The notes under the pieces are model-generated. The model saw only the letters and a program-made list of their open reading frames with translations, was not told the origin of the DNA and made no database searches. A stretch of 64,000 bases of DNA. It comes from Heterodontus francisci. Its lineage: Eukaryota. The stretch covers positions 77,171,402 to 77,235,401 of the forward strand of contig NC_090375.1 in the NCBI RefSeq assembly GCF_036365525.1. Direction: 5' to 3'. This document shows, piece by piece, positions 2,559-62,384 of the stretch. Numbering within the stretch: position 1 is the stretch's first letter; every line of letters begins with the position of its first letter. Position numbers and translations under genes: made by a program.

Positions 2559-3569
2559 GAAAGCAAAAACATGAAAAATAAGTTTAAGACTAACACATGG
2601 TTCAAAAATAACTTTAAAAGAATATATATCTGTATGTAAAGAAATAAGATTAAAATATTTGTAATAAAGAAGAAATAATGGGGCTCATGGTCTGAAATTA
2701 TTGAACTCAATATTGAATCCAGAAGGTTGTAGAGTGCCTAATCGGAAGATGAGGTGCTGTTCCTCGAGCTTGTGTTGATGTTCACTGGAATACTGCAAAA
2801 TGTGGGCATGAGAACAAGGTGGTGAATTAAAATGGCAAGATACCGGAAGCTCGGGATCACGCTTGCAAAGCGAGCGGAAGTGTTCTGCAAAGTGATCACC
2901 CAATCTGCATTTGTCTCCCCAATGTAGAGAAGACTGCACTGTGAGCAGTTAATACAGTATACTAAACTGAAAGAAGTACAAGTAAATCCTTGCTTCACCT
3001 GGAAGAAGCACTTGGGGCCTTGGACGGTGAGAAGAGAGGAGGTAAAAGGGCAGGTATTACACCTCCGCACATGACGTCTGATTCAGAGTTCCAACAGTTA
3101 CCATGGGTACTCGCGGTACAGGAGAGGTCACCTGACCTCTTACTCTCTTGTCTTGCAGCAACAGTGTCCATCTTGGAGTTAAATTCCTCAGTTTATTTTT
3201 ATAGTTCATAATTGCTCCTTGTGTGAGCATGTAAAGTCACATGCTCAAATTCTATGTTTTTTTGCCAATCAGCAAGTTTTCATCAATAATCTCAGCATTT
3301 AAAAATTCTAGATTATTTTTCCTATTTTCAATGAAGTTTAGTCCTGACTCTCTCTTGATGATTTACAATCTAAGTCTCGGTAGCATGTTGGACACAGCTG
3401 AAAAACTTCTCCAATGCAACAATGGGCAGAATTTTTTTTTAAACTGATCTGACCTTCAGGGAGCAGATCAGTTGAAAGGTGTGGGAAAGCACAATTTGGG
3501 ATTCCCAAACACTGTGGAGCTTTAACGGACGTCATTCAACAGGTTCCTCACCCACAGACCCACCCCGAC

Positions 3570-12594: not shown

Positions 12595-14035
12595 CGATGC
12601 AGGAATAATTATATTTCACATGAGTAGCCAACTTTTGGCTTAGACTACTTTTCCAGAACAGGACTAGATAATCACAAACATGACTGAAGCAAGAGGCATT
12701 GAGTTAAAATATTCAGGACAGTCAGTCCTGGAGTGAGAGCAATGTACAGTGGTACATCTGCCCAATATAAAGTGCACATCTGTTTCCAACGGATTTTCCA
12801 ATTTGACCCCAAGTTACGTATGGGAGATGAGCTTCTGCCCACATGGACACATGCATACAAGTAGGATCTCTGATCTCTGAAGTATGGTGTATTTTTCCTT
12901 TGCGATACAGGGATAATACATAGAACCTGAAGTAAAAATGAGATGACAACTGGGTGGCCATAGAGTTAGAAAAAAAGCAGAGCTTTGTCTAATGAGTGAA
13001 TTATATGTTGTAATGATGCTCAAGTTCAGCATCTTCCAATTACTTGAAATAAGTTTTTTGAAATTTGCAGTGGAAACTTTGAAAGAGAATGAGGATTCTT
13101 TGGAAAGTAGAAGGAAGTCAGAAGTAAGCTGCAGCAAAAATTTTATGCAAGATTTTCCCTCCTCCTGCAAATAAAGTACATCGATTGGAGAAATGAAAGA
13201 AATGTTTTGAAGTTCAAGTCAATAAATTCTCTCAATTAAACTTTCATTTAATGTGAAATAAAGGGAAGGGGTTTAAATAATCACACTACTTCTCACCAAT
13301 AGAGGATTGCTGAATATGAATGGCCATATCAGTGGTTTATGTCTTTGAGACCCTGGTACATGCAATGAGGCAAAGGAAGGTTGCTTTGGTTTGAATACAA
13401 GAGCACCCTCCCTAGAGATCTGTATAAAATGCCGGTCAGAGGATAGTTGGCAAGGAGATTATTGTTTGCAATGCTCAATAGATCTTGCGCAAATGTAGAA
13501 GATGGCAGACCTGAGGGAAGATGCCATAGTAATGCGACCCAGCAGATTCTAATGGCAAGTATCTGACCCAAATATGCTTGCAACAAAGTGGGTCTTCAGA
13601 ACCCATTACCCTCTACTGCACATACACTGGAACATAGGAGCTGGAGTAGGCCATTCAGCCTGTCGAGCCTGCTCCGCCATTTAAATAGATCATGGTTGAT
13701 CACCTACCTCAACGCCATTTTCCCGCACTATCTCCATATCCCTTGATATCATTGGTAAACAGAAATCTATCGATTTCAGTCTTGAACAGGCTAAATGATT
13801 GGAATTCTCTACCCGAGTGGGCTGTGAAAGCTCAATCATTGGCCACCATCTGAATGATGAAATTCCTCCTCATCTCAGTCTTAAATGGCCTACCCCTTAT
13901 TCTAGACTCACAAGCCAGGGGAAACATCCTATCTACATCCACCCTGTCACGCCCTGTAAGAATTTTGCAAGTTTCAATGTGATCACCTCTCATTCTTCGA
14001 AACTCTAGAGAATACAGGCCCAGTTTCCTCAATCT

Positions 14036-14135
14036 AGGGGAGGCGATGGCATTGTGGCATTGTCATTGGACTAGCAACCCAGAGACCCAGGGTATTGCTC
14101 TGGAGGCATGAGTGTGAATCCTACCACAGCAGAAG
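14036..14135 (+). promoter_or_regulatory. tRNA-derived Pol III-type head (degenerate A and B boxes)
   Basis: A-box-like TGGCATTGTGG near 14047 and B-box-like GAGTGTGAATCC near 14110, at the very 5' end of the insertion. Confidence 0.6.
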
Positions 14136-17015
14136 GTGGAATTCGAATTCAAATAATAAATCTGGAATTAAAAGCTAGTCGAATGATGGCCATGAAACCA
14201 TTGTCGACTGTCGTAAAAACCCATCTGGTTCACTAATGTCCTTTAGGGAAGGAAATCTGCTGTCCTTACCTGGTCTGGCCGACATGCGACTCCAGACCCA
14301 CAATGTGGTTGACTCTTAAATGCCCTCTGAAATGGCCTAGCAAGTCACTCAGTTGTATGAAACCACTACAAAGTCAAAGAAGAATGAAACCGGACAGACC
14401 ACCTGGCATCGATCCAGGCACCAGAAACGACAACACCAAACCCAGCCCTGTCGACCCTGCAAAGTCCTCCTTACCAACATCTGGGGGCTTCTGCCAAAGT
14501 TGGGAGAGCTGTCCCACAGACTAGTCAAACAGCAGCCTGACATGGTCATACTCACGGAATCTTACCTTACAATGTCCCAGACACTGCCATAAACATCGCC
14601 AGAGTTGGCGGCACAGTGGTATACAATCGGGAGGGAGTTACCTTGGGAGTCTTCAACATCAACTCTGGACCGGCAGGTGGTGAGGGAACCAACAAGAGGG
14701 AAAAACATACTTGACCTCGTCCTCACCAATCTGCTTGCCGCAGATGCATCCGTCCATGACAGTATCAGAAGGAGTGACCACCACACAGTCCTTGTGCAGA
14801 TGAAGTCCCGTCTTCACATTCAGGATACCCTCCATTGTGTTGTGTGGCACTACCACCATGCTAAATGGGATAGATTTCGAACAGATTTAGCAACTCAAAA
14901 CTGGGAATCCATGAGGTGCTGTGGATCCTCAGCAGCAGCAGAATTGTACTCAACCACAATCTCTAACCTCATGGCCCAGCATATCCCCCACTCTACCATC
15001 ATCATCGAGCGGGGGTGGGGGGGCAACCCTGGTTCAATGAAAAGTGCAGGAGGGCATGCCAGGAGCAGCACCAGCTATACCTCAAAATGAGGTGCCAACC
15101 TGGTGAAGCTACAACTCAGTACTACTTATGTGCCAAACAGCATAAGCAGTATGCGATACAGCTAAGCGACCCCACAACCAACGGATCAGATCTAAGCTCT
15201 GAAGTCCTGCCACATCCAGTCGTGAATGGTGGTGTATAATCAAACATCTGACAGGAGGAGGAGGCTTCACAAATATCCCCATCCACAATGATATGGGAGC
15301 ACAGCACATCAGTGCAAAGGATAAGGCAGAAGCCTTTGCAACAGGCTTCAGCCAGAAGTGCCGAGTGGATGATCCATCTCGGCCTCCTCCAGAGGTCCCC
15401 AGCATTACAGATGCCAGACATCAGACAATTAAATTCACTCCACGTGTATCAATAAACGACTGAAGGCACTGGATACTGCAAAGGCTAGGGGCTCTGACAA
15501 CATTCCGGCAATAGTACTGAAGACTTGTGCTCCAGAACTTGCCGCGCCCCTAGCCAAGCTGTTCCAGTACAGCTACAATGCTGACATTTACCCAGCAAAG
15601 TGGAAAATTGCCCAGGTATGTCCTCTACACAAAAAGCAGGACAAATCCAACCCGGCCAATTACCGCCCCATCAGTCTACTCTCAATCATCAATGATGTGA
15701 TGGAAAGTGTTGTCGTTAGTGCAATCAAGCGGCACTTGCTTAGCAATAACCTGCGCAGTGACGCTCAGTTTGGGTTCCGCCAGGGCCACTCAGCTCCTGA
15801 CCTCATTGCAGCCTTGGTTCAAACATGGAGCTGAACTCCAGAGGTGAGGTGAGAGTGGCTGCCCTTAATACAAAGGCAGCATTTGACCGAGAATGGTATC
15901 AAGGAGCCCAAGCTAAACTGGAGTCAATGGGAACCAAGGGGAAAACTCATCACCGGTTGGAGTCATACCTACAAAGGAAAATGGTTCTGGCTGTTGGAGA
16001 TCAAATCATCACAGCTCCAGGACATCACTGCAGGTGTCCCTCAGGGTAGTGTCCTCGGCCCAACCATCTTCAGCTGCTTCATCAATGATCTTCCTTCAAT
16101 CGTAAGGTCAAAGTGGGGATGTTCGCTGATGATTGCACAATGTTCAGCACCATTCGCGACTCCTCAAATACTGAAGCAATGTCGAAACGCAGCAAGACTT
16201 GGACAATATTCAGCCTTGGGCTGATAAGTGGCAAGTAACATTCACGCCACATAAGTGCCAGGCAATGACAGTCTCAAAGAAGAGAAAATCTAACCATCTC
16301 CCCTTGACATTCAATGGCATTACAATCACTGAATCCCCCACTATCAACATCCTGGGGGTTACCATTGACCAGAAACTGAACTGGAGTAACCAAATAAATA
16401 CCGTGGCTAAAAGAGGTCAAAGGCGAGAAATCCTGCAGCGGGTAACTCACCTCTTGACTCCCCAAAATCTGTCCACCATCTACATCCACTTCCATCACGA
16501 GTATGATGGAATGTTCTCCACTTGTCTGGATGGGTGCAGCTCCAACAACACTCGAGAAGCTCGACACAATCCAGGACAAAGCAGCCCGCTTGATTGGCAT
16601 CCCATCCAGCACTTTCAACATTCACTCCCTTCACCACCGAAGCACAGTGGCAGCAGTGTGTACCATCTACAAGATGCACTGCAGCAATGTACCAACGCTC
16701 CTTTGACAACACCTTCCAAACCCACGACCTCTAGCACCTAGAAGGACAAGGGCAGCAAAAGCATGGGAACACCACCACCTGCAAATTTCCCTCCAAGCCA
16801 CACACCATCCTGACTTGGAACTATATCGCTGTCCCTTCACTGTCACTGGGTCAAAATCCTGAACTCCCTAACAGCACTGTGGGTGCAGCTACCCCACACG
16901 GACTGCAGTGGTTAAGAAGGCGGCTCACCACCACCTTCTCAAGGACAATTAGGGATGGGCAATAAATGCTGTCCTAGCCAGCAATGCTCACATCCCATGA
17001 ATGAATAATAAAAAA
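14036..17015 (+). mobile_element. TSD-bounded L2/CR1-group LINE with tRNA-derived SINE-like 5' head and single degenerate APE-RT frame
   Basis: TSD AATCT (14031-14035 / 17016-17020). APE VLLTNIWGL...[54 protein letters not shown]. Tail ...CACATCCCATGAATGAATAATAAAAA. Confidence 0.88.
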
Positions 17016-17256
17016 AATCTCTCCTCATAAGATAATCCTGCCATTCCAGGGATTAGTCTGGTGAACGTCCGTTGCACTCCCTCTCTGGCAAGTATATCCT
17101 TCTTTAGATAAGGAGACTATTACTATACACAATCCTACAGGTGCAGTCTCACAATTGCAGCAAGATATCTTTACTTCTGTACTCAAATTCCCTTGCAATG
17201 AAGGCCAACATACCATTTGCCTTCCTAATTGCTTGCTGCATCTGTCTACCTCACCT

Positions 17257-17455
17257 GAGTGAGACCGGCAGAGTTTAAAAGTTCAGCGGCAGCAGGAAGG
17301 AGCGAGACTGAGTGAGACTGGCAGAGTTTAAAAGTGCAGCAGCAGTGGGAAGGAGCAAGACTGAACGAGATGGGCAGAGTTTAAAAGTACAGCGGCAGCT
17401 GGAAGGAGTGAGACTGAATGAGACTGGCAGAGTTTAAAATTGCAGCGGCAGCACG
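17257..17455 (+). repeat. 53-bp tandem monomers (about 3.7 copies) in CR1 5' UTR
   Basis: Units start at 17257, 17310, 17363, 17416, each containing GGCAGAGTTTAAAA..CAGC.GCAG. Confidence 0.9.
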
Positions 17456-18445: not shown

Positions 18446-20143
18446 AAAATGGCAGGGGGATGGGAACCTTTGCAAGGAATCAGGGGAGGGGGGATCAAAG
18501 ACAAGAACAAGAGACAGTAAGGGGAATAAGAAAAGTAATAGGCAGAGAAATCAAGGACCAGAATCAAACTGGGCCACAGTGAAAAATAATGGGAAGGGGA
18601 CAAGTCATGTTAAAAAGACAAGCCTTAAGGCTTTGTGTCTTAACGCACGGAGCATTCTCAATAAAGTGGATGAATTAATCGCGCAAATAGATGTAAACGG
18701 GTATGATATAGTCGGGATTACTGAGACATGGCTGCAGGGTAACCAGGGAAGGGAAATGAACATCCAGGGATATTCAGTATTTGGGAAGGACAGACAAAAA
18801 GCAAAAGCAGCGGAGTTGCATTGCTGGTTAAAGAGGAAATTAACGCAATAGTAAGAAAAGATATTAGCTCTGACGATGTGCAATCTGTATGGGTAGTGGG
18901 GGTTATATATAGACCCCCAAACTGTAGTGGTGATGTTGGGAATGGCATTAAACAGGAAATTAGAGATGCATGCAATAAAGGAACATCTGTAATTATGGGG
19001 GAATTTAATCTGCATATAGATTGGGCAAATCAAATTAGTCACCATACTGTAGAGGAGGAATTCTTGGAGTGTATACGGGATGGTTTTCTGCACCAATACG
19101 TTGAAGAAACAACTGGAGAACAGGCCATCCTAGACTGGGTATTGTGTAATGAGAGAGGAATAATTGACAATCTAGTGGTGCGAGACCCCTTGGGGACGAG
19201 CGACCATAATATGATAGAATTCATTATCAAGGTGGAGAGTGATGTAGTTGATTCTGAGACAAGGGTCCTGAATCTTACTAAAGGAAACTACGAAGGTAAG
19301 AGGTGCAAGTTGGCCACGATAGATTGGGAAACGTTACTTAAAGGGATGTCGGTGGATAGGCAATGGCAAACATTTAAAGAGCGCATGGATGAACTACAAC
19401 AATTGCTTATCCCTGTTTGGCGCAAAAGTAAAATGGGAAAGGTAGCCAAACCATGGTTTCTAAGGGAAATTAGAGATAACATTAGATCCAAGGAAGAGGC
19501 AAATAAATTCGCCAGGAAAAACAACAGTCACGAGGATTGGGAGCAGTTTACAATTCAGCAAAGGCAGACCATGGGATTGATTAAGTAGGGGAAAATAGAG
19601 TACTCTTGTAGCTTGCAGAGAACATAAAAACTGACAGTAAAAGGTTCTATAGGTTTGTGAAGAGAAAAAGATTGGTGAAGACAAATGTATGTCCCTCACA
19701 GTCAGAAACATGGGAATTGATTATGGGGAATAAAGAAATGGCTGACCAACGAAATGCATACTTTGCTTCTGTCTTCACAAAGGAAGACACAAATATCATA
19801 CCAGAAATGTTGGGGAACACAGGGCTTAGTGAGAGAGAGGAACTGAAGGAAATCAGTATTAGTAGAGAAATGGTGTTGGGGAAATTGATGGGATTGAAGG
19901 CTGATAAAACCCCAGGGCCTGATGGCATGCATCCCAGACTACTTAAGGAAGTGGCCCTAGAAATAGTGGATGCATTGGCGGTCATCTTCCAAGATCCTAT
20001 AGACTCCAGAACAGTTCCTACAGATTGGAGGGTAGCTAATGTAACCCCACTATTTAAAAAGGGAGGTAGAGAGAAAGCAGGGAATTAGAGACTAGTCAGC
20101 CTGACGTCGGTAGTGGGGAAAATAGTAGAGTCCATTTCAAAGA

Positions 20144-23100
20144 ACAAAGAAGAGTACAGCACAGGAACAGGCCATTCGGCCCTCCAAGCCTGCGCCAATC
20201 TTGATGCCTGCCTAAACTAACACCTTCTGCACTTCTGGGGCCCATATCACTCTATTCCCTTCCTATTCATGTATTTGTCAAGATGTCTCTTGAACGTCGC
20301 TATCATATCTGCTTCCACCACCTCCCCCGGCAGCAAGTTCCAGGCACTCACCACCCTCTGTGTAAAAAACTTGCCTCGCACATCCCCTCTAAACTTTGCC
20401 CCTCGCACCTTAAACCTATGTCCCCTAGTAACTGACTCTTCCACCCTGGGAAAAAGCTTCTGACTATCCACTCTATCCATGCCGCTCATAACTTTGTAAA
20501 CCTCTATCATGTCGCCCCTCCACCTCCGTCGTTCCAGTGAAAACAATGCGAGTTTTTCCAACCTCTCCTCATAGTTAATGCCCTCCAAACCAGGCAACAT
20601 CCTGGTAAACCTCCTCTGTACCCTGTCCAAAGCCTCCACGTCCTTCTGGTAGTGTGGCGACCAGAATTGCACGCAATATTCTAAGTGTGGCCTAACTAAG
20701 GTTCTGTACAGCAGCAACATGACTTGCCAATTTTGATACTCTATGCCTCGACCGATGAAGGCAAGTATGCCGTATGCCTTCTTGACTACCTTATCCACCT
20801 GCGTTGCCACTTTCAGTGACCTGTGGACCTGTACGCCCAGATCTCTCTGCCTGTCAATACTCCTAAGGGTTCTGCCATTTACTGTATACCTCCCACCTGC
20901 ATTAGACCTTCCAAAATGCATTACCTCACATTTGTCTGGATTAAACTCCATCTGCCATTTCTCCGCCCAAGTCTCCAACCGATCTATATCCTGCTGTATC
21001 CTCTGACAGTCATCATCATTATCCGCAACTCCACCAACCTTTGTGTCATCCGCAAACTTACTAATCAGACCAGTTACATTTTCCTCCAAATCATTTATAT
21101 ATACTACAAACAGCAAAGGTCCCATCACTGATCCCTGCGGAACACCATTAGTCACATCCCTCCATTCAGAAAAACACCCATCCACTGATACCCTCTGCCT
21201 TCTATGACCCAGCCAGTTCTGTATCCATCTTGCCAGATCACCTTTGATCCCGTGTGACTTCACCTTTTGTACCAGTCTGCCATGCGGGACCTTGTCAAAG
21301 GCTTTACTAAAGTCCATACAGATAACATCCACTACCCTTCCTTCATCAATCATCTTCGTCACTTCCTCAAAAAACTCAATCAAATGAGTAAGACACGACC
21401 TCCCCTTCACAAAACCATGCTGTCTCTCGCTAATAAGTTCGTTTGTTTCCAAATGCGAGTAAATCCTGTCCCGAATAATCCTCTCTAATAGTTTCCCTAC
21501 CACTGACGTAAGGCTCACCGGCCTATAATTTCCTGCATTATCCTTGCCACCCTTCTTAAACAAAGGAACAACATTGGCTATTCTCCAGTCCTCTGGGACC
21601 TCACCTGTAGCCAATGAGGATACAAAGATTTCTGTCAAGGCCCCAGCAATTTCTTCCCTTGCCTCCCTCAGTATTCTAGGGTAGATCCCATCAGGCCCTG
21701 GGGACTTATCTACCTTAATGCTTTGCAAGACGCCCAACACCACCTCCTTTTTGATAACGACATGACCCAGACTATCCATACTCTCTTCCCCATCATCCAC
21801 CAAGTCCTTCTCTTTGGTGAATACTGATGCAAAGTACTCATTTAGTACCTCGCCCATTTCCTCTGGCTCCACACATAGATTCCCATCTCTGTCCTCGAGT
21901 GGGCCAACCCTTTCCCTGGTTACCCTCTTGCTCTTTATATATGGATAAAAAGCCTTGGGATTTTCCTTAATCCTGTTTGCCAATGACTTTTCATGACCCC
22001 TTTTAGCCCTCCTAACTCCTTGCTTAAGTTCCTTCCTACTGTCTTTATATTCCTCAAGTGCTTCGTCTGTTCCTAGCCTTCCAGTCCTTACAAATGCTTC
22101 CTTTTTCTTTTTGACCAGGCTCACAATATCCCGCGTTATCCAAGCTTCCCGAAACTTGCCAAAGTTGTCTTACTTCCTCACAGGAACATGCTGGTCCTGG
22201 ATTCTAATCAGTTGACGTTTGAAAGACTCCCACATGTCAGATGTTGATTTACCCTCAAACAGCCGCCCCCAATCTAAATTCTTCAGTTCCTGCCTAATAT
22301 TGTTTTAATTAGCCTTCCCCCAATTTAGCACCTTTACCCGAGGACTACTCTTATCCTTATCCACAAGTACCTTAAAACTTATGGAATTATGGTCATTGCT
22401 CCCCCACTGAATCTTCGACCACCTGGCCGGGCTCATTCCCCAATACCAGGCCCAGAATGGCCCCATCCCTAATTGGACTTTCTGCATACTGTTTCAAGAA
22501 GCCCTCCTGGATGCTCCTCACAAATTCTGCCCTATCCAAGCCCCTAGCACTAAGGGAGTCCCAGTCAATATAGGGGAAGTTAAAATCACCCACCACCACA
22601 ACCCTGTTACCTTTACATCTTTCCAAAGTCTGTCGACATATCTGCTCCTCTACCTCCTGCTGGCTGTTGGGAGGCCTGTAGTAAACCCCCAACATCGTGA
22701 CTGCACCCTTCCTATTCCTGAGCTCCACCCATATTGCCTCGCTGCATGACCCCTCTGAGGTGTCCTCCCGCAGTACAGCTGTGATATTCTCCTTAACCAG
22801 TAATGCAACTCCCCCACCCCTTTTACATCCCCCTCTATCCCGCCTAAAGCTTATAAAGCCTGGAACGTTTAGCTGCCAATCCTGCCCTTCCCTCAACCAA
22901 GTCTCTGTAATAGCAACAACATCATAGTTCCAAGTCCTAATCCAAGCTCTCAGTTCATCTGCCTTACCTGTTATACTTCTCGCATTGAAATAAATGCACT
23001 TCAGACCACCAGTCCTGCTGTGCTCCGCAACATCTCCCTGCCTGCTCTTCCTCTTAGTCCTACTGGCCTTAGTTACTAATTCCTCCTCATTTATTTCACT

Positions 23101-23176
23101 AGCTGTCCTACTGCTCTGGTTCCCATCCCCCTGCCACACTAGTTTAAACCCTCCCGAGTGACGCTGGCAAACCTTG
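20144..23176 (-). mobile_element. Young CR1 LINE, 5'-truncated at end of ORF1
   Basis: APE ORF 22393-23199 and RT ORF 20247-22124. Flanking TCAAAGA at 20137-20143 and 23177-23183. Confidence 0.95.
20247..22124 (-). CDS. CR1 ORF2 reverse transcriptase portion (625 aa uninterrupted), separated from APE by a stop and indels
   Basis: KSPGPDG, NYRPVSLTS, QHGF, DFSKAFDKVPH, GVPQGS, KFADD, DLGV, RPHLEYCVQFW. Confidence 0.85.
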   Translation of the reverse strand: MSLVKKKKEAFVRTGRLGTDEALEEYKDSRKELKQGVRRAKRGHEKSLANRIKENPKAFYPYIKSKRVTRERVGPLEDRDGNLCVEPEEMGEVLNEYFASVFTKEKDLVDDGEESMDSLGHVVIKKEVVLGVLQSIKVDKSPGPDGIYPRILREAREEIAGALTEIFVSSLATGEVPEDWRIANVVPLFKKGGKDNAGNYRPVSLTSVVGKLLERIIRDRIYSHLETNELISERQHGFVKGRSCLTHLIEFFEEVTKMIDEGRVVDVICMDFSKAFDKVPHGRLVQKVKSHGIKGDLARWIQNWLGHRRQRVSVDGCFSEWRDVTNGVPQGSVMGPLLFVVYINDLEENVTGLISKFADDTKVGGVADNDDDCQRIQQDIDRLETWAEKWQMEFNPDKCEVMHFGRSNAGGRYTVNGRTLRSIDRQRDLGVQVHRSLKVATQVDKVVKKAYGILAFIGRGIEYQNWQVMLLLYRTLVRPHLEYCVQFWSPHYQKDVEALDRVQRRFTRMLPGLEGINYEERLEKLALFSLERRRWRGDMIEVYKVMSGMDRVDSQKLFPRVEESVTRGHRFKVRGAKFRGDVRGKFFTQRVVSAWNLLPGEVVEADMIATFKRHLDKYMNRKGIE

Positions 23177-30254: not shown

Positions 30255-33200
30255 TAAAAAGGCAGTGAGCAGTATTTTTAAAGGCAGCAGCCCTGGAGGG
30301 AACAGCGAGGGAGCCCTGGAAACAGCAGAGATAGTGACAGTAGTGATAATGGATAGTGATTGGTGGACAGGCGCTTCTGTGGACGTGAAAAAGACTCCAG
30401 GATGGGATGTTGCCTCCCTGGTGCCAGGGTCAAGGATGTCTCTGAATGGACAGGGGGCATTCTGAAGGGGGAGGGTGAACAGCCAGAGGTTGTGGTACAC
30501 ATCGGTACCAACGACATAGGCAGGAAGAGTGACGAGGTCCTGCAGGGGGAGTTTAGGGAGTCAGGTAGAAAGTTAAAAGACAGGACCTCTAGGGTTGTAA
30601 TCTCGGGATAACTCCCTGTGCCACGTGCCAGTGAGGCTAGAAATAGGACGATAGTGCAGCTAAACACGTGGCTGGTGTAGGAGGGAGGGTTTCAGATATC
30701 TGGATCATTGGGATCTCTTCAGGGACAGGTGGGACCTGTACAGGAAGGACGAGTTGCATCTAAACTGGAGGGGCACAAATATCCTGGCTGCGAGGTTTGC
30801 AAGCGTCACTCGGGAGGGCTTAAACAAGTGTGGCAGGGGGGTGGGAACCAGAGCAGTAGGGCAGCAGGTGAAATAACTGAGAGGGAACTAGTAAATAAGG
30901 CCAGTAAGACTAAGAGGAAGAGCAGGCAGGGAGATGTTGCGGAGCAGAGCAGGACTGGTGGAATGAAGTGCATTTATTTCAATGCAAAAAGTATAACAGG
31001 TAAGGGAGATGAACTTAGAGCTTGGATTAGTACTTGGAACTATGATGTTGTTGCTATTACAGAGACTTGGTTGAGGGAAGGACAGGATTGGCAGCTAAAT
31101 GTTCCAGGATTTAGAAGCTTCAGGCGGGATAGAGGGGTATGTAAAAGGGGTGGGGGAGTTTCATTACTGGTCAAGGAGAATATCACAGCTGTACTGCGGA
31201 AGGACACCTCGGAGGGGTCATGCAGTGAGGCAATATGGGTGGAGCTCAGGAATAGGAAGGGTGCAGTCACGATGTTGGGGGTTTACTACAGGCCTCCCAA
31301 CAGCTAGAGGGAGGTAGAGGAGCAGATATGCAGACAGGTTTTGGAAAGATGTAAAAGGTAACAGGGTTGTGATGGTGGGTGATTTTAACTTCCCCTATAT
31401 TGACTGGGACTCACTTAGTGCTGGGGGCTTGGATGGGGAAGAATTTGTGAGGAGCATCCAGGAGGGCTTCTTGAAACAGTATGTAGATAGTCCAACTAGG
31501 GATGGGGCCGTACTGGACCTGGTATTGGGGAATGAGCCCGGCCAGGTGGCCGAAGTCTCAGTAGGGGAGCATTTCGGGAACAGTGACCATAATCCCGTAA
31601 GTTTTAAGGTACTTGTGGATAAAGAGAAGAGTAGTCCTAGGGTGAAGGTGCTAAATTGGGGGAAGGCTAATTATAACAATATTAGGCAGGAACTGAAGAA
31701 TTTAGATTGGGGGCGGCTGTTTGAGGGTAAATCAACATCTGACATGTGGGAGTCTTTCAAACGTCAGCTGATTAGAATCCAGGACCAGCATGTTCCTGTG
31801 AGGAAGTAAGACAACTTTGGCAAGTTTCGGGAAGCTTGGATAACGCGGGATATTGTGAGCCTAGTCAAAAAGAAAAAGGAAGCATTTGTAAGGACTGGAA
31901 GGCTAGGAACAGACGAATCCCTTGATGAATATAAAGAAAGTGGGAAGGAACTTAAGCAAGGAGTCAGGAGGACTAAAAGGGGTCATGAAAAGTCATTGGC
32001 AAACAGGATTAAGGAGAATCCCAAGGCTTTTTATCCATATATAAAGAGCAAGAGGATAACCAAGGAAAGGGTTGGCCCACTCAAGGACAGAGGAGGGAAT
32101 CTATGTGTGGAGCCAGAGGAAATGGGCGAGGTACTAAATGAGTACTTTGCATCAGTATTCACCAAAGAGAAGGACTTGGTGGATGATGGGGAAGAGAGTA
32201 TGGATAGTCTGGGTCATGTCGTTATCAAAAAGGAGGTGGTGTTGGGCGTCTTGCAAAGCATTAAGGTAGATAAGTCCCCAGGGCCTGATGGGATCTACTC
32301 CAGAATACTGAGGGAGGCAAGGGAAGAAATTGCTGGGGCCTTGACAGAAATCTTTGCATCCTCATTGGCTACAGGTGAGGTCCCAGAGGACTGGAGAACA
32401 GCCAATGTTGTTCCTTTGTTTAAGAAGGGTAGCAAGGATAATCCAGGAAATTATCGGCCAGTGAGCCTTACGTCAGTGGGAGGGAAATTATTACAGAGGA
32501 TTCTTCGGGACAGGATTTACTCCCATTTGGAAACAAATAGACTTATTAGCGAGAGAAGCAGCATGGTTTTGTGAAGGGGAGGTCGTGTCTCACTAACTTG
32601 ATTGAGTTTTTTGAGGAAGTGGCGAAGATGATTGATGAAGGAAGGGTAGTGGATGTTGTCTACATGGACTTCAATAAAGCCTTTGACAAGGTCCCGCATG
32701 GCAGACTGGTACAAAAGGTGAAGTCACATGGGATCAGAGGTGAGGTGGCAAGCTGGATACAGAACTGGCTCGGTCATAGAAGACAGTGGAAGCAGTGGCT
32801 TTTCTGAATGGAGGGCTGTGACTTGTGGTGTTCCGCAGGGATCAGTGCTGGGACCTTTGCTGTTCGTATTATATATAAATGGTTTGGAGGAAATGTAGCT
32901 GTCTGATTATTAAGTTTGCGGATAGTGATGAGGATTGTCAGAGGATACAGCAGGATATAGATCGGTTGGAGACTTGGGCGGAGAAATGGCAGATGGAGTT
33001 TAATCCGGACAAATGTGAGGTAATGCATTTTGGAAGATCTAATATAGGTGGGAAGTATACAGTAAGTGGCAGAACCCTTAGGAGTATTGACAGGCAGAGA
33101 GATCTGGGCATAAAAGGTCCTCAGGTCACTGAAAGTGGCAACGCAGGTGGATAAAGTAGTCAAGAAGGCATACGGCATGCTTGCCTTCATCGGTCGGGGC

Positions 33201-33756
33201 ATAGAGTATAAAAATTGGCAAGTCATGCTGCAGCTGTACAGAACCTTAGTGAGGCGACACTTAGAATATTGCGTGCAATTCTGGTCGCCACAGTATCAGA
33301 AGGACGAGGAGGCTTTGGAGAGGGTACAGAGGAGGTTTACCAGGATGTTGCCTGGTCTGGAGGGCATTAGCTACGAGGAGAGGTTGAATAAACTCAGATT
33401 GTTTTCACTGGAATGACGGAGGTGGAGGGGCGACATGATCGAGGTTTACAAAGTTATAAGTGGCATGGACAGGGGACATAGGTTTAAGGTTCGAGGGGCA
33501 AAGTTTAGAGGGGATGTGCGAGGCAAGTTCTTTACACAGAGGGTGGAGAGTGCCTGGAACTTGCTGCCGGGGGAGGTGGTGGAAGCAGGTACGATAGCGA
33601 CGTTTAAGAGGCATCTTGACAAATACATGAATAGGATGGAAATAGAGGGATATGGTCCCCGGAAGTGCAGAAGGTTTTAGTTTAGACAGGCATCAAGATC
33701 GGCGCAGGCCTGGAGGGCCGAATAGCCTGTTCTTGTGCTGTACTGTTCTTTGTTCT
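30255..33756 (+). mobile_element. CR1 LINE, 5'-truncated in ORF1, inserted at the Harbinger Myb-gene start
   Basis: CLPGARV...VVHIGTNDI, APE 30708-31809, RT 31855-33680, tail TGTTCTTTGTTCT. ATG duplicated at 30252-30254 / 33757-33759. Confidence 0.93.
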
Positions 33757-33978
33757 ATGACAGAACGCAGAGCAAATGTGGCATCCAGGTTCAGAGTGTT
33801 CTCCTTGGAGGTGCTCCTCCAGGTTGTACAGGCTCAGAGGGAAGTCCTGCTCCCTTGGGATACGAGGAGACTGGCTCATCAAACCAAACAGGCATGGATG
33901 GAGATAGCAGAGGAAGTGAACAGCATGGAGTGGTCCCACGTACTTGGCTGCAGTGTCAAAAGAGGATTCGTGACCTGA
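33757..33978 (+). pseudogene. Harbinger Myb/SANT-like DNA-binding protein, first exon (remainder about 35600-36600)
   Basis: MTERRANVASRF...LEVLLQVV...REVL...TKQAWMEIAEEVNS plus frameshifted RTWLQCQKR. Coiled coil QKMLELQREVQEHLVELSEAM at about 35990. Confidence 0.8.
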
Positions 33979-34469: not shown

Positions 34470-35603
34470 TTTTTTTAAATTGGATCATGGGATGTGGGTG
34501 TCACTGGCTAGGCCAACATTTATTGCCCACCCCTAATTGCCCTTGGGAAGGTGGTGGTGAGCTGCCTTCTTGAACTGCTGCAGTCCATGAGGGGCACGTA
34601 CACCCACAGTGCTGTTAGGAAAAGAGTTCCAGGATTTTGACCCAGTGACAGTGAAGGAAGGGTAATATAGTTCCAAGTCAGGATGGTGTGTGGCTTGGAG
34701 GGGAACTGGCAGGTGGTGGTGTTTCCATGCAGCTGCTGCTCTTGCTCTTCTAGGTGGTAGAGATCGTAGGTTTGGAAGGTGTTGTCTAAAGAGCCTTGGT
34801 GCATTGCATCTTGTGGATGGTACACACTGCTGCCACTGTGCGTCGGTGGTGGAGGGAGTGAATGTTTGTAGATGCCAATCAAGCGGGCTGCTTCGTCCTG
34901 GATGGCGTCAAGCTTCTTGAGTGGGAGCTGCACCCATCCAGGCAAGTGAAGCGTATTGCATTACATTCCTGACTTGTGCCTTGTAGATGGTGGACAGACA
35001 TTGGGGAGTCAAGAGGTGAGTTACTCGCCGCAGGATTCCTAGCCTCTGACCTGCTCTTGTAGCTACGGTATTTATATGACTACTCCAGTTCAGTTTCTGG
35101 TCAATGGTAGCCCCTAGGATGTTGATAGTGGGAGATTCAGTGATCATAATGCCACTGAATACCAAGGGGAGATTGTTAGATCCTCTTGCTGGAGATGGTC
35201 ATTGCCTGGCACTTGTGTGGCATGAATGCTACTTGCAACTTATCAGCCCAAGCCTGGATATTGTCCAGGTCTTGCTGCATTTCTACACGGACTGCTTCAG
35301 TATCTGAGGAGTCATGAATGGTGCTGAACATTGTGCAATCATCAGCAAACATCCCCACTTCTGACCTTATGATTGAAGAAATGTCATTGATGAAGCAGCT
35401 GAAGATGGTTGGGCCTAGGACACTACCCTAAGGAACTCCTGCAGCGACGTCCTGGAGCTCAGATGATTGACCTCCAACAACCACAGCCGTCTTCCTTGTG
35501 CTCGGTATGACTCCAACCAACGGAGAGTTTCCCCCCTGATTCCCATTGACTCCAGTTTTGCTTGGGCTCCTTGATGCCATACTTGGTCAAATGCTGCCTT
35601 GAT
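34470..35603 (-). mobile_element. 5'-truncated copy of the 14036-type LINE
   Basis: DIKAAFDQVWH, MFADDCTMF, ITESPTINILG, and the same GGCAATTAGGG...CACATCCCATGA tail. Confidence 0.9.
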
Positions 35604-53511: not shown

Positions 53512-54240
53512 AGTAACATTCAAGGCACATAAGTGCCAGGTAATGACCTTTTCCAACAAGAGAGAATCTAACCATGTCCCCTTGACATTCAACTGCACTG
53601 CCATCGCTGAATCCCGCACTAACAACATCCTAAATATTGTGGCTACAAGAGCAATTCAGAGGCTGGGAATTCTGTGGTGGGGAACCCACTTCCTGACTCC
53701 CCAAAGCCTGTCCACCATCTACAAGGCACAACTCAGGAGTGTCAAGGAATACTCTCCACTTGCCAGATTGAGTGCAGCCTCAACAACACTCAGGAAGCTC
53801 AATACCATCCAGGACAAAGCAGCCCACTTGATCAGCACCCCATCAACCACCTTAAGCATTCAATCCCTTTACCACCGATGCACAGTGACAGCAGTGTGTA
53901 CCATCTACAAGATGTACTGCAGCAACTCATCAAGATTCCTTTGACAGCACCTCCCAAACCCACAACCTCTACCACCTAGAAGGACAAGGGCAGCAGATGC
54001 ACTGGAACGCCATCTGCAAGTTCCCATCCAAGCCACACACCATCCTGACTCGTAAATATATTGTTGTTCCTTCGCTATTGCTGGATCAAAATCCTGGAGT
54101 TCCCTCCCTAACTACCCTGTGGGTCTTCCCACACCAGATGGATGCCAACGGTTCAAGAAGGCAGCTCACTACCATCTTCAAGGGCAATTAGGGATGGGCA
54201 ACAAATTGTCCACATTCCATGAAATGAAAAATTAAAAAAT
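53512..54240 (+). mobile_element. 3' fragment of the 14036-type LINE
   Basis: KRESNHVPLTFN...LSTIYKAQLRSVKEYSPL...IQDKAAHLI and tail GGCAATTAGGGATGGGCAA. Confidence 0.88.
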
Positions 54241-54809
54241 CACAGAATACACAACATCATTCGAAAATCTTTACATGAAAAATATGTTCAAACCTTTGCT
54301 GAACCACTGACTTACTAATTAATGATCTAATGACTGCAGTGTCGTTGTGAGTGAGGTCAAAGTCAGATGCCTCCATCACTTCAGAGTGACAAAACACAAT
54401 AAAGATTATTGAAATTCCTAAATGTAACATTGATAGACAGCTGGAAGTTAGAAAACTTTTTCCAGTACAAGACAGCACATAAACTGTGTAAGTAACATTC
54501 CCATATTTTCATTTCAAACAATGTGTGATATAAAGTTTGCTTTTAAGTAAGGATCGTGTGTGGGAGGCTTACGAATAAGATTGTCAGACATGAGCTTGTG
54601 AATGTGGGCAGCGCTTTCTTATTCTTAACTATTTATTTATTTTCAAATAAATACTTGCATTTCTAGGATAACATACACCTTTCACTACACAAATTCCAAA
54701 AAAAATGTTAAATCACCAGATTTTATGTTAATATCTGCATTCTCCTCAATCCTACCTTATTTATCATTAAAGATTTACCCACCATTCTGACCTTATTTAT
54801 TCCCCAACA

Positions 54810-55040
54810 CTACTTAAAGTGAATAAAGCACCAGGGCCGAATGAGGTGTATCCAAGGGTACTGAGGGAAGTGAGGGCGGAAATTGCAGAGGCACTGGCCA
54901 TCATTTTTCAGTCTTCCTTCGACTCGGCAGTGGTGCCAGATGACTAGAGAATTGCAAACGTTACACCCTTGTTCAAAAAAGGGTGTAAAGATAAGCACAG
55001 CAACTACAGGCCAGTCAGTTTAACTTGGGTGCTGGGAAAA
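54810..55040 (+). mobile_element. Short internal CR1 RT fragment
   Basis: LKVNKAPG..YPRVLREV...D*RIANVTPLFKKG...NYRPVSL. Confidence 0.75.
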
Positions 55041-55200
55041 CAGGAAGGGATTCCACTCTTTAAATGTCCAGAGGTGAGGTGAGAGTGACTGCCCCTGACC
55101 AAGGCAGCATTTGACCAAGTTTGACATTAAGGAACTCTAGGAAAACTGGAGTAAATGGGAATCAGGGGGAAAGCTCTCTGCTGGTTGGAGTCATACCTAG

Positions 55201-57487
55201 AACAGAGGAGCAGGAGTAGGCCACTCAGCCCATCGAGCCTACTCCGCCATTCAATACGATCATGGCTGATCATCCACTTCAATGTCTTTTTCTCCACACT
55301 ATCCCAATATCCCTTTATGTCATTGGTATTTAGAAATCTGTCAATCTCTGCTTTAAACATACTCGATGACTGAGCTTCCACAGCCCTCTGGGGTAGAGAA
55401 TTCCAAAGATTCACCACCCTCTGAGTAAAGACATTGCGTCCCCTGATTCTGGACTCCCCAACCAGGGGAAACATCTTACCTGCATCTACCCTGTCTATCC
55501 CTTTAAGTATTTTGTAGGTTTCAATGAGATCACCTCTCATTCTTCCAAACTCTAGAGAATACAGGGCCAGTTTCCCCAATCTCTCTTCATAGGACTGTCC
55601 TGCCATCCTGGGAACAAGTCTGGTGAACCTTTGTTGCACTCCCTCTATGGCAATAATATCCTTCCTAAGGTATGGGGAGCAAACTGCACATCCAGGTGCA
55701 GGCTAACCAAAGTTCTATACAATTGAAGCAAGACTTCACTACTCCTGTACTCAAATCCTCTTGCGATAAAGGCTAACATACCATTAGCCTTCCTAATTGC
55801 TTGATGCACCTGCATGTTAGCTTTCAGTAACTTACTGACGAGGACAACCAGGTCCCTTTTTACATCTACACTTTCTAATCTCTTACCATTTAAGGAATAC
55901 TCTACACATCTATTCCTTCTACCAAAATGGATAACCACATTTTTCCACATCATATTTCATCTGCCATGTTCTTGCCCACTCACGAGGTCTGTCCAAATCC
56001 CCTTGAAGCCGCTTTGCATCTTCCTCACAACACACATTCCCACCTAGTTTTGTGTCATCCACGAACTTGGAAATATTACATTTGATCCCCACATTCAGAT
56101 CATTGATATATATTGTCAACAGCTGGGGCCCAAGTGCTGATCCTTGCAATACCCCGCTAGTCACAGCCTGCCAAAGCGAGAATGACCCATTTATTCCTAC
56201 TCTCCGCTTTCTGCCTGTTAACCAATCCTTAATTCATGCCAGTAGATTACCTCCTATCCCATGTGCTTTAGTTTTGCTGACCAACCTCCTGTGGGGAACT
56301 TTATCAAAAGCCTTCTGAAAATCCAAGTATACTACATCCACTGACTCCCCTTTATCAATTCTGTTAGTAACATCCTCAAAAAAACTCCAACAGTTCATCA
56401 AACATGATTTCCCATTCACAAATCCATGTTCACTCTGCCCATTCAGATCATTATTATCCAAGTGTACATTTATCACATCCTTTAGAAGATTCTAGCATTT
56501 CCCCAATGACTGATGTAAGGCTAACAGGTCTGTAATTCCCTGTTTCTCTCTCCCTCCCTTCTTAAATGGTGGGGTGACATTTGCTATCTTCCAATCTGCA
56601 GGAACCATTCCAGAATCTATAGAATTTTGGAAGATGATCAACAAGGTATCCATTATCTCCATAGCTACCTCTTTCAACACTCTGGGATGTAGAATATCAG
56701 GTCCTGGGGACTTATCAACAACCTTCAGTCCCATTAATTTCTCCAGTACTAATACTAATTTCCTTCAATTCCTCATTCTCCCTAGTCCCTTGGATCTCTA
56801 AATCTGGGAGATTTCATGTATCTTCCTCAGTGAAGACAGACACAAAAAGCTGCATTTTAAAAGCCCGCTGACGAAATAGGCGGCGGGCAGAAAATTTGTG
56901 GTCCACATGCACAGGGCCAACGTCACGGAGCCGCTGTGATTCCAAACATGGCAGTTCACTACCACGGCAGCCGCATCACCCCCGCCCAATGACGTGAAGG
57001 GAGTGGGAAAGCTGTCTAGGGGACTCCCTTACTAACGTACTGATCCCATTCCTCATTATCAGGAACAGGTATTAGTGTCGCACTTTTTGCCTGTCCTTCC
57101 TAAATGTCGAAATCCTTGAATATTCAATTCCCAGTCTTGGTCACCCTGTAGCCACGTTTCCATAATGGCAATTAGCTCATACCCATTTAACTCTATTTGT
57201 GCCTTTGAATTATCTACCTGGTTGCGAATGCTGCGTGCATTCAGGTAGAGTGCCCTTAATCTTGTCTTTTTAACATTATTCTGCATTCTAAGCCTAGTTA
57301 ATACTTGCCTTTGTTTTGCCTGCCTTCTAATTACAGTTGCTACTTTTCAACTTCCTTTTACCAGCTTTACTTCCTTCCAACTTCAGCTACCCCTCAGGTT
57401 CCCATCCCCCTGAAAAACTAGTTTAAATCCTCCCCAACAGCACTTGCAAATCTCCCTGTGAGGATATTAGTCCTGGTCCTGTTAAGG
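55201..57487 (-). mobile_element. CR1 with large internal deletion and a MITE-like fragment (about 56850-57010) at the deletion junction
   Basis: APE start LYLNARSIRN (57059-57286) jumps to KSPGPD/RT core (55127-56734). Confidence 0.85.
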
Positions 57488-57669
57488 TTAGGTTGTTGGA
57501 AGTCAATCATCTCAGTCCCAGGACATCACTGCAGGAGTTCTTCAGGGTAGTGACCTAGGCCCAACCATCTTCAGCTGTTTTATCAATGACCTTTCCTCCA
57601 TCATAAGGGCAGAAGTGGGGATGTTCGCTGATGATTGCACATTGTTTAGTACCACTCGTAACTCCTTCA

Positions 57670-60185: not shown

Positions 60186-62384
60186 TCAGATACTGAAGCA
60201 GGCCATGTCCATATGCAGCAAGATCTGAACAACTTCCCCCCTTGGGCTGATAAGTGGCAAGTAACATTCGTGCCAGACAAGTGCTGGGCAATGGCTATCT
60301 CCAACATGAGAGAATCTAACCATCTCCCCTTGATATTCAATGGCATGACCTCCACTATCAACATCCTGGGAGTTACCATTGACCAGAAACTGAACTGGAC
60401 CTGCCATATAAATACCGTGGCTACAAGAGCAGGCCAGAGGCTGGGAATTCTGCAGCGAGTAACTAACCTCCTGACTCCCTAAAGCCTGTCCACCATCTAC
60501 AAGGCACAAGTCAGGAGTGTGATGGAATACTCTACACTTGCCTGGATAGGTGCAGCTCCAACAACACTCAAGAAGCTCGACACCATCCAGGACAAAGCAG
60601 CCTGCTTGATTGGTACTCCAACTACCACCTTAAAATATTCACTCCCTTTACCACCGACACACAGTGGCAGCAGTGTGTACCATCTACAAGATGCACTGCA
60701 TCAACTCATCATGCCTCCTTCAACAGCACCTGTCAAAACCATGACCTCTATCACCTTGAAGGACAAGAGCAGCAGATGCAAGTTCCCCTGCAAACCACAC
60801 ACCATTCCTGATTTGGAACTATATCACCGTTCCTTCACTGTCACTGGGTCAAAATCCTGGAACTCCCTTCCTAACAGCAATGTTGGCACACCTGCACACC
60901 AAGGACTGCAGCGGTTCAAGAAGGCAGCTCACCACCACTTTCTCAAGGGCAATTAGGGATGGGCAATAAATGCTGGCCTAGCCAGTGACATCCACATCCC
61001 ATGAATGAATAAAAAAAAAAGCCAGTGAGGGGTAGGGCTGGCTTCCCAAAAATCTTGACTCCAGGTCTCTTATTGCCACTTACCAGGGCCCCCAAGTAAA
61101 GGGTGGCATTAGACCTAGGGTAGTAGCAGTTTAGCTCTGCACTTTACAAATGGAGAAAGCAGGCCCCCACATTAACTTTTGTTGGCCTCAATTGCTATCA
61201 AGACCTACAATGCCAGAAGCCGTCTTTAGCTTTGGGTTTTCCTAACCTCTTTAAAGTCCTTAGCAGACTCTTCTGTGATGTAGCAATGGTCCAGCTGTGG
61301 CACCACCTCATTACCCTCTTTGGCACTGGCAGACTGCCTATTATTAGCTGAAATCCCACCAGGGCCGAAAACCCTTTCGTCCAGAATATTGCTACAGATC
61401 AGAATGGAGGAGGATGGGCAGGTGGAGATTTTGCCACTCTGCTCTGAAGAGGTGAATCCAGTCCTTACTCTCTTTGGTGTTTTTTCCCCCCCTAAATCTA
61501 CTTTCATGCAGCATCATTGGCATGGATGTTCAGAAGATTGCTAAACTTGACACAATGGTCTGTTCTGACATGAGGATGACAGGATAAAAATTTGATGCAA
61601 TAATTGGGGATTTTTGTTTAAAGAGAACTTCTACTAAATTGTCCAGAATATACATTAATTATCCGATCATGCTACAAGATCAGTGCCATTGGCCTCTCAA
61701 TTCCACTCTCTCCTAGATAGATTTTCAGAGCAAGTGCCACTCTAGAGATTCACTAACAGATTGGCTGGACCACCATTTTTTTTTTGCTTGTCTGTTGATC
61801 ATAAAGTGCATGGTGATTCACTCTAGATTACCAAAGATTATAAAATGTGAATTATATTCATAAATAATCACACCCTATAAGACAGCTTTGTACTATGTAA
61901 TTAATTTCTTCTTGTTTTTCAATTATTTTTGATTTTTCTTCTATTCTGCCTTGTAAAATAAATGCTTTCCAAATTAAAATTGGCAAAAACATAGGAAACA
62001 ATCATCTGTACTGAATACATTTTTAAAACAGCACAATGTGCTGTTCAGTTACCATGGGCAACACTAACATCTGTCAACACTGTAACACTGCTATAGCAGC
62101 AGTAAATATGTTCACATGAAGATTATATTGTAGTAATAAATTTCACTGAGCATTAGAATGTTAGGGGAATGAGGCAACTGAGAGGAGTCAAAGAGGCAGG
62201 TAATACTCTCACAGGCTATTGTACACCTTCCCCTTTGAGAAAGTGCTGTGTCTCTGTTTGCCACCTCCTCTTGACAGCCTGTCTGAATATATTAACATTT
62301 GATAGTAGGAAATCTGGTGCATGAGAACTAAACAATGACGGAATCAAATAAGTACCTTAAATGTAAGCAGTTCTTGACAATGCA

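Follow-up and report, generated by a model that had tools for sequence, protein, structure and literature searches.

An insertion at positions 14036-17015 of a 64,000-nt stretch of the Heterodontus francisci genome (contig NC_090375.1, positions 77,171,402 to 77,235,401, forward strand; hereafter the window) reads as a decayed full-length copy of elasmobranch Zenon, a 3.3-kb family of long interspersed elements (LINEs) whose single open reading frame (ORF) encodes an APE endonuclease and a reverse transcriptase (RT). The family begins with a head that, judged by its sequence, is tRNA-Thr-like and carries A and B boxes, and its sense strand is free of long T runs. We consider it reasonably probable that RNA polymerase III (Pol III) makes the template RNA of this LINE from a tRNA-Thr-derived internal promoter. 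The family, the single ORF and the tail are known already, and the head has been published as raw sequence only; we infer that the element is an undescribed variant of a known family, with a strong and testable sign of Pol III transcription.

The family, its head and its short forms

The initial annotation had described a single insertion bounded by AATCT duplications, in which a tRNA-like head and a body segment run into an APE-RT frame without ORF1. Its bounds proved exact for one insertion within a CR1-type host fragment, which is contiguous in paralogues elsewhere in the window, and the body and tail strings that it quoted were found in the sequence. AATCT flanks the element on both sides, and each of three aligned empty-site paralogues of the host fragment (~55578, 59764 and 24425) has it a single time, so that the target-site duplication is real; a fourth paralogue (~46616) has AACCT instead. 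The copy is ~90-91% identical to the family consensus over aligned columns. Its frame lacks ORF1 and is disabled, as proposed, by frameshifts and deletion in the endonuclease: 21 indels separate it from the consensus, the largest being 257-nt and 36-nt deletions, both in the endonuclease. The proposed head stood only in part, since the A box is recognisable in this copy whereas the B box is decayed here and clear in the family consensus. ARAGORN and Rfam did not call the head of the window copy, and its score against the genome's tRNA-Thr, unlike that of the consensus head, is not above shuffles.

In the consensus, the A box of the head lies at 12-22 and the B box at 76-86, and the head has a CT-AGT-AA loop. 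Aligned with the genome's own tRNA-Thr with a 20-nt insert, it scores 59.5, against a maximum of 48.5 in 500 shuffles; tRNA-Lys, the other isotype compared, gives a score inside the shuffle range. Rfam returned just a sub-threshold tRNA-Sec for a young head (17.6 bits, E 0.82). A mature tRNA would have its 5' end 3-4 nt downstream of the element's start, and the acceptor stem has not stayed in register. The 20-nt insert (window 14083-14108) forms a hairpin whose pairs look flipped, by eye, between subfamilies and species.

A query spanning the head-ORF junction (14200-14600) yielded 8,191 candidates in the source genome. Of these, 40 were scored, one of them being the window copy; the other 39 match with 90-91% identity over at least 391 of 401 nt. 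The head runs into the ORF in all 39, in different flanks, and 29 start within 9 nt of a common 5' end. The majority consensus of 28 copies and the window copy (11 interrupted or short copies were left out) is 3,290 nt long, and the 28 copies are 93.5-97% identical to it. A consensus test for one intact ORF, proposed in the initial annotation, returned a single 975-codon stop-to-stop frame. Copies were also sampled independently of the head, using a 29-mer at the start of the endonuclease (8,349 exact matches in the genome, control 0). Of the 30 that come first in order of position, the head start is kept in 16 (13 continue without a break to within 28 nt of the 5' end, and 3 have a gap), and the remaining 14 end at scattered places. 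Full-length copies with a conventional 5' UTR (untranslated region) and ORF1, which the initial annotation had named as evidence that would refute its proposal, were looked for in this sample: upstream of the 30 copies there is no alternative common 5' UTR or ORF1, only host repeats at differing offsets. The join of head and ORF is accordingly a family trait.

When copies were picked by their 3' part, 9 of 58 were full length. An older type of body matched exactly at 1,167 sites; among the first 40 of these, 9 continue into the ORF, and their consensus carries the same head. The head is present on thousands of copies of the family, in young and old subfamilies. A-rich ends follow ATGAAT in most of 24 listed copies; a 5-8-nt duplication adjoining the junction was seen by eye in just ~3-4 of the 24, and an automatic duplication search gave mostly chance matches. 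Searches with older window fragments mostly recovered the same young family, not sister families. The body motif had no match in the JGI metagenomes, and 80 metagenome loci with related RTs contained no above-chance match to head, body or tail and no A/B-box pair; relaxed ARAGORN calls at these loci are scattered and were taken as noise.

The family has one ORF, and Pfam finds both APE and RT in a real copy. Real copies contain frames of 970-990 codons if stops are read through, and two candidates for a copy with whole head and unbroken ORF proved to be 5'-truncated. At one locus (L377; C3:89131650-89135200, minus strand), a CR1 endonuclease fragment is followed in frame by a 5'-truncated copy of the element; the product is a 964-codon chimeric open frame, probably due to a chance insertion. 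Pieces of the element ORF, at 67-89% identity, also occur in the shark gene models P0001, P0008, P0015 and P0017 (aldo-keto reductase, SVEP1-like, GPR139 and LRRC32-like), which are likely to be repeat-contaminated models or cases of exonisation.

Named protein matches are to sharks (Heptranchias, 89%; Pristiophorus), and the more distant ones are to lepidopterans and Branchiostoma. The RT phylogeny suggested in the initial annotation was built with 51 rows. It places the element with Zenon-type RTs, in a 26-row clade (support 99/99) that also holds proteins of lepidopteran type and of Branchiostoma, and apart from the ORF1-bearing CR1 rebuilt from the same genome; membership of a known family had been missed. 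The Zenon label itself derives from near-identity by eye to published consensuses, as no row of the tree is labelled Zenon. In the portions of Stuart et al. (2026, PMC13343379) that bear on this, Zenon elements of five elasmobranchs are described as >84% identical, without ORF1, with a poly-A tail and not yet in repeat repositories. Theirs is the same family (~3.3 kb, no ORF1, APE and RT, A-tail), and the first 400 nt are near-identical by eye: six consensuses from five species (Supplementary Table 2) start with the same head and body, and the hagfish and coelacanth Zenons given there, of which the first 400 nt were compared by eye, do not show it. The element shares with Zenon the RT grouping, the single APE-RT ORF without ORF1 and the poly-A 3' end. 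Because the absence of ORF1 and the poly-A end are normal in elasmobranch Zenon, they are not novel features. The words 'tRNA' and 'promoter' are absent from the main text of PMC13343379, and 'tRNA' from the part of its supplement examined; its passages on Zenon describe neither such a head or a signal for Pol III nor a short partner or avoidance of T runs. No tRNA-headed or Pol III-type Zenon was found among the papers listed by searches of the open full-text literature, which did not cover subscription journals, Repbase, Dfam, SINEBase, the Zenodo files of PMC13343379 or its consensuses beyond 400 nt, so that a prior description is possible. Five element motifs had no match in a full-text literature search.

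The suggestion of the initial annotation that a short interspersed element (SINE) could be the internal-deletion derivative of this LINE was borne out insofar as a short head-and-tail form exists. It joins consensus positions 1-322 to 3223-3290 (~390 bp), and its body-end/tail junction has 5,233 exact matches in the genome (control 0); the head start is kept in 23 of the first 30. Like SINE2 elements, it is present in many copies, lacks an ORF, shares its tail with a LINE and has A and B boxes in a tRNA-derived head. Like a short internally deleted element (SIDE), it takes both ends from the partner LINE and shows signs of repeated origin. A tree was built from 75 heads: a young clade with a support of 98 holds 8 short forms together with 50 LINE heads, older short forms and 3 older LINEs lie outside it, and support is weak at most other forks. 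Bodies and tails co-vary in type (young with young in 9/9 classified short forms, old with old in 3/4), and in contigs from other runs numerous 5' breakpoints meet almost the same 3' point. The placement of young short forms among young LINE heads, the co-variation and the many breakpoints all fit repeated internal deletion; a single origin with later exchange may still apply. The short forms L333, L351 and L357 have other deletion junctions and keep a longer piece of the ORF end. Contig depth peaks at L035:510-658, the 3' half of the body, and many contigs differ before ~510-515, which suggests that further short families may share the body behind diverged or different 5' parts.

The 3' 140 nt of the body are nearly invariant between subfamilies, and the body is more conserved than the tRNA part. 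No HDV (hepatitis delta virus)-like ribozyme core was seen in it by eye. Its likening to the Meta domain of MetaSINEs such as SlmI, made in the initial annotation, was not supported. The consensus printed in Kojima 2020 (PMC7245038) and the bivalve members shown in Nishihara 2016 (PMC4824008) differ from the body by eye, and an 11-mer of the Meta consensus has no match at up to 2 mismatches in the head or body of copy L035. The 66-bp Meta domain expected directly after the tRNA part of a MetaSINE is thus absent by eye and by the 11-mer, although the heads of MetaSINEs are, in the passages of PMC4824008 on them, also most like tRNA-Thr. The salmon MetaSINE appears in the sources consulted as SalSINE1, not SlmI. 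SlmI itself, compared by its table description only (PMC3747384), is listed with tRNA-Leu and the partner RSg-1, in contrast to the Thr-like head found here. The central domains of Deu and UCON3 were likewise rejected; their printed alignments are unlike the body by eye, and six element motifs are absent from both supplementary files.

Depletion of T runs on the sense strand

Vertebrate Pol III terminates at runs of at least 4 T (T4) and also at degenerate T5 signals, as stated in passages of PMC3141230. The impression in the initial annotation that the coding strand is poor in long T runs was confirmed by counts against CR1: the 3,290-nt consensus has no T4 run on the sense strand versus 14 on the antisense strand, and the sense strand of the window copy has none either. 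The control was ORF2 (987 codons) in the consensus of a canonical CR1 family with ORF1 remnants (esterase-like by eye); two copies of this family, 91% identical and inverted, lie in the window at 20137-23174 (minus) and 30793-33760 (plus). The control ORF2 contains 45 T3 runs versus 44.8 expected, and 10 T4 runs, as expected. In the element ORF, 4 T3 runs are observed versus 13 in codon shuffles (p=0.001). T4 runs, absent from the ORF, would number 5.1 if synonymous codons were used uniformly (p=0.004), and base shuffles of the whole element give 4.5 (p=0.01). Real copies contain 0.18 T4 runs per kb, versus 3.9 in control copies of similar age.

The depletion extends to codon junctions, of which 5 have T on both sides versus 26.4 expected (control, 41 versus 41.1); none of 27 codons before TTN ends in T, and none of 44 codons after NTT starts with T. 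Phenylalanine accounts for 1.85% of residues; the median of 109 relatives is 4.34%, and a single relative has less than the element. There is no depletion of A, C or G runs in the element, nor of mixed pyrimidine tracts, AATAAA or splice donors. A partial consensus of the old layer (1,537 positions, 70 differences) is also devoid of T4. With 1.13 T4 runs per kb, old-layer copies exceed the 0.6-0.8 obtained when neutral decay of the young consensus was simulated, which indicates that decay restores T runs. The sense strand therefore has the oligo-T-free character expected of a Pol III-transcribed LINE, and a purge that is specific to T and to one strand and spans the coding frame matches the prediction of selection against Pol III terminators. 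Pol II-type causes were considered and rejected: AATAAA, splice signals and pyrimidine tracts are not depleted, and no fitting Pol II explanation was found.

Transcription and rival explanations

According to the reading that we favour, TFIIIC would bind the A and B boxes recognised in the consensus, and Pol III would start ~11 nt upstream of the A box, which would fix the 5' end. Selection would clear the coding strand of oligo-T, reaching even codon junctions and probably the use of phenylalanine, so that Pol III could read 3.3 kb; the depletion itself is observed. The RNA would continue past the A-rich end to a T run in the flank, as SINE transcripts do. The APE-RT protein may be initiated at a near-cognate codon or by a shift from the +1 AUG frame, perhaps independently of a cap. 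It would bind the 3' stem-loop and act by target-primed reverse transcription with short or no duplications, as established for the CR1 group and in keeping with the duplication found here. Internal deletions that keep promoter and tail would give Pol III-competent short elements at once, and more than once, as the trees and junctions suggest. The tRNA-Thr-derived head would, as one part of this reading taken whole, have been acquired in the shark and ray lineage, which we again hold to be reasonably probable. We give about an even chance to a fuller version, in which the element is an autonomous coding retrotransposon whose uncapped 3.3-kb Pol III RNA is both mRNA (with a non-AUG or cap-independent start) and template, which persists in sharks and rays by purging terminators and yields SINEs by deletion. 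Review passages (PMC10886601) separate LINEs, which are coding Pol II products, from SINEs, which are short, non-coding Pol III products; a Pol III-made coding LINE would, if real, break this split. It would also be a natural case of translation from Pol III RNA and provide a one-step route from a LINE to a tRNA-headed SINE whose body is conserved. For gene-insertion work, compact single-ORF retroelements of the Pol III kind could be of interest.

Several points weigh against Pol III transcription or against translation of its product. LINEs and other non-LTR (long terminal repeat) retrotransposons are treated as Pol II units, and SINE length is said to be limited by weak Pol III processivity, in the pertinent passages of Kojima 2024 (PMC10886601). 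An uncapped Pol III RNA would also lack an in-frame AUG, as the family consensus reaches the endonuclease without an ATG in frame. A +1-frame ATG overlapping the ORF start is present in the six published consensuses and is mostly ATA in old-layer copies of the source genome; by eye, the upstream frame is broken in two of the consensuses as printed. The body does not fold above shuffles (z -0.74). No copy was seen that combines a whole head with an unbroken ORF, the longest frame among 40 copies being 705 codons. The stingray consensus, as printed (PMC13343379), has a shortened head and an imperfect B box. The absence of T4 from the ORF, taken alone, is not significant against codon shuffles (0 versus 2.1 expected, p ~0.08), because the codon usage of the element is itself shifted, and just one control family from the same genome was used. 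Related frames of at least 600 codons, present at 43 of the 80 metagenome loci, carry at least 7 T4 runs in 43/43 cases, but related ORFs have 22-39% T, compared with 20% in the element, and are a lenient control. Contigs from runs taken as RNA, a status that was guessed for run X2, cover all 30 bins in four runs but give neither start, strand nor level, and were not used as evidence of transcription.

A head captured from a SINE could serve as a 5' UTR, the LINE being a Pol II transcript driven by an element within the conserved body or by host promoters, with the boxes kept for the short form and heads swapped by template switching. LINEs are held to be Pol II units (passages of PMC10886601 and PMC5786205), capping would solve the problem of translation, it is the body and not the tRNA part that is most conserved, and young short forms among young LINE heads would also be expected from exchange. 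This account leaves unexplained why T runs are avoided over a 2.9-kb ORF that the short form lacks and why Pol II hazards are not depleted, and two AATAAA sites lie near the 5' end; we regard it as unlikely, though not negligible. The avoidance of T runs is explained, and the problem of translation removed, if labour is divided, Pol III making the full-length template RNA and the protein being translated from capped RNAs that Pol II makes on reading through intronic or other copies, so that the element is mostly a protein-carrying SINE acting in trans. Thousands of short forms have been mobilised in trans, and 39% of Zenon-like sequence in the whale shark is intronic by the relevant passage of 10.1101/443036. 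However, maintenance of the ORF over several subfamilies and species is easier with cis-preference, and a capped RNA would also lack an in-frame AUG, making this arrangement improbable in our view.

Self-cleaving ribozymes trim the 5' ends of R2 and RTE transcripts. The tRNA-like head could similarly be a signal for RNA processing or stability, acting through protein binding or a cut of the RNase P type, by which read-through transcripts are trimmed to a set 5' end, as the fixed 5' end, the retained anticodon and T arms and the hairpin pairs of the insert, flipped by eye, would allow. A start 3-4 nt before the mature tRNA 5' end, an acceptor stem out of register and the unexplained avoidance of T runs make this very unlikely. 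One-off tRNA/LINE-1 chimeras exist in humans, where, in the passages of PMC13174262 describing them, they are rare and mostly antisense halves. Such a template switch or recombination at this locus is refuted to near certainty, as the join is common to thousands of copies, several subfamilies and five other species.

Related systems and features of the window

R2, which is co-transcribed with rRNA and is not known to have a promoter of its own, is a retroelement not made by Pol II. Among the known systems compared with the Pol III reading, the lepidopteran Zenon and its SIDE Persaeus (PMC6740152, in part) likewise pair a single-ORF 3.3-kb CR1-group LINE with repeated internally deleted partners of 260-390 bp. 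Persaeus is described there as without tRNA, 5S or 7SL homology or a Pol III promoter, whereas the deletion product of the element is a tRNA-headed SINE in form. RTE-1_DAn and elements related to it (Kojima 2018, PMC5786205) are LINEs of a single-ORF clade said to contain tRNA-like sequence matching many SINE2 elements; they belong to the RTE clade, unlike the element, and the passage gives no position, boxes or function for that sequence. Bipartite SINEs, in passages of the same paper, consist of a tRNA head, a LINE 5' part and a LINE 3' part, as does the short form here. Their head was added to a non-autonomous derivative, with 5' parts from RTE and Vingi only, in contrast to a head on a coding CR1-group LINE. 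Cassandra, Helenus and Ajax (TRIMp3; passages of PMC10886601) also have Pol III promoters and are not Pol II-made, but are short, non-coding LTR elements.

The initial annotation had counted at least four other fragments of the family in the window (34470, 42423, 53512 and 55065). These were found again, together with two more at 57491 and 60186, making six. Coordinates are collected in Table 1.

Table 1 Features of the insertion and its surroundings, in window positions.
Feature	Position	Strand	Basis
Left target-site duplication AATCT	14031..14035	+	Single AATCT in three empty-site paralogues
Putative full-length decayed elasmobranch Zenon LINE	14036..17015	+	Consensus identity; 5' end matches CarCar/RhiTyp/ScyCan/SquAca/HypSab_Zenon by eye
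tRNA-Thr-like head, 20-nt insert at variable-arm position	14036..14130	+	Consensus head score above shuffles
A box, here TGGCATTGTGG, family TGGCGTAGTGG	14047..14057	+	Sequence; recognisable in window copy
Anticodon-arm remnant; family loop CT-AGT-AA, window copy AGC	14066..14082	+	Sequence
B box, decayed in window copy; family consensus GGTTCGAATCC / GGGTTCGAATCC	14110..14121	+	Sequence, consensus
Body / 5' UTR common to short form; not Meta, by eye neither Deu nor UCON3	14131..14354	+	
Single APE-RT frame, broken in window copy; family 975 codons stop-to-stop	14341..16952	+	
Short ATG-led frame, +1, overlapping main-frame start	14384..14524	+	
APE endonuclease region (approximate), with 36-nt and 257-nt deletions	14467..14790	+	
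Reverse transcriptase core, split over three frames	15640..16366	+	Pfam RVT_1 pieces
3' tail common to short form: stem-loop, AATAAA, ATGAATGAAT, A-rich end	16939..17015	+	
Right target-site duplication AATCT	17016..17020	+	Empty-site paralogues
Left part of CR1-type host fragment	13621..14035	-	
Right part of CR1-type host fragment	17016..17244	-	
5'-truncated fragment of the element's family, 84%	34471..35600	-	
Older 3' fragment of the element's family, 75%	53512..54211	+	
3' fragment of the element's family, 80%	60186..61019	+	

CR1-type fragments of both orientations are densely nested at 54771-61019, where family fragments at 55067, 57491 and 60186 interrupt them. A 91-bp direct duplication (89%) is located at 17255-17451, just to the right of the host fragment.

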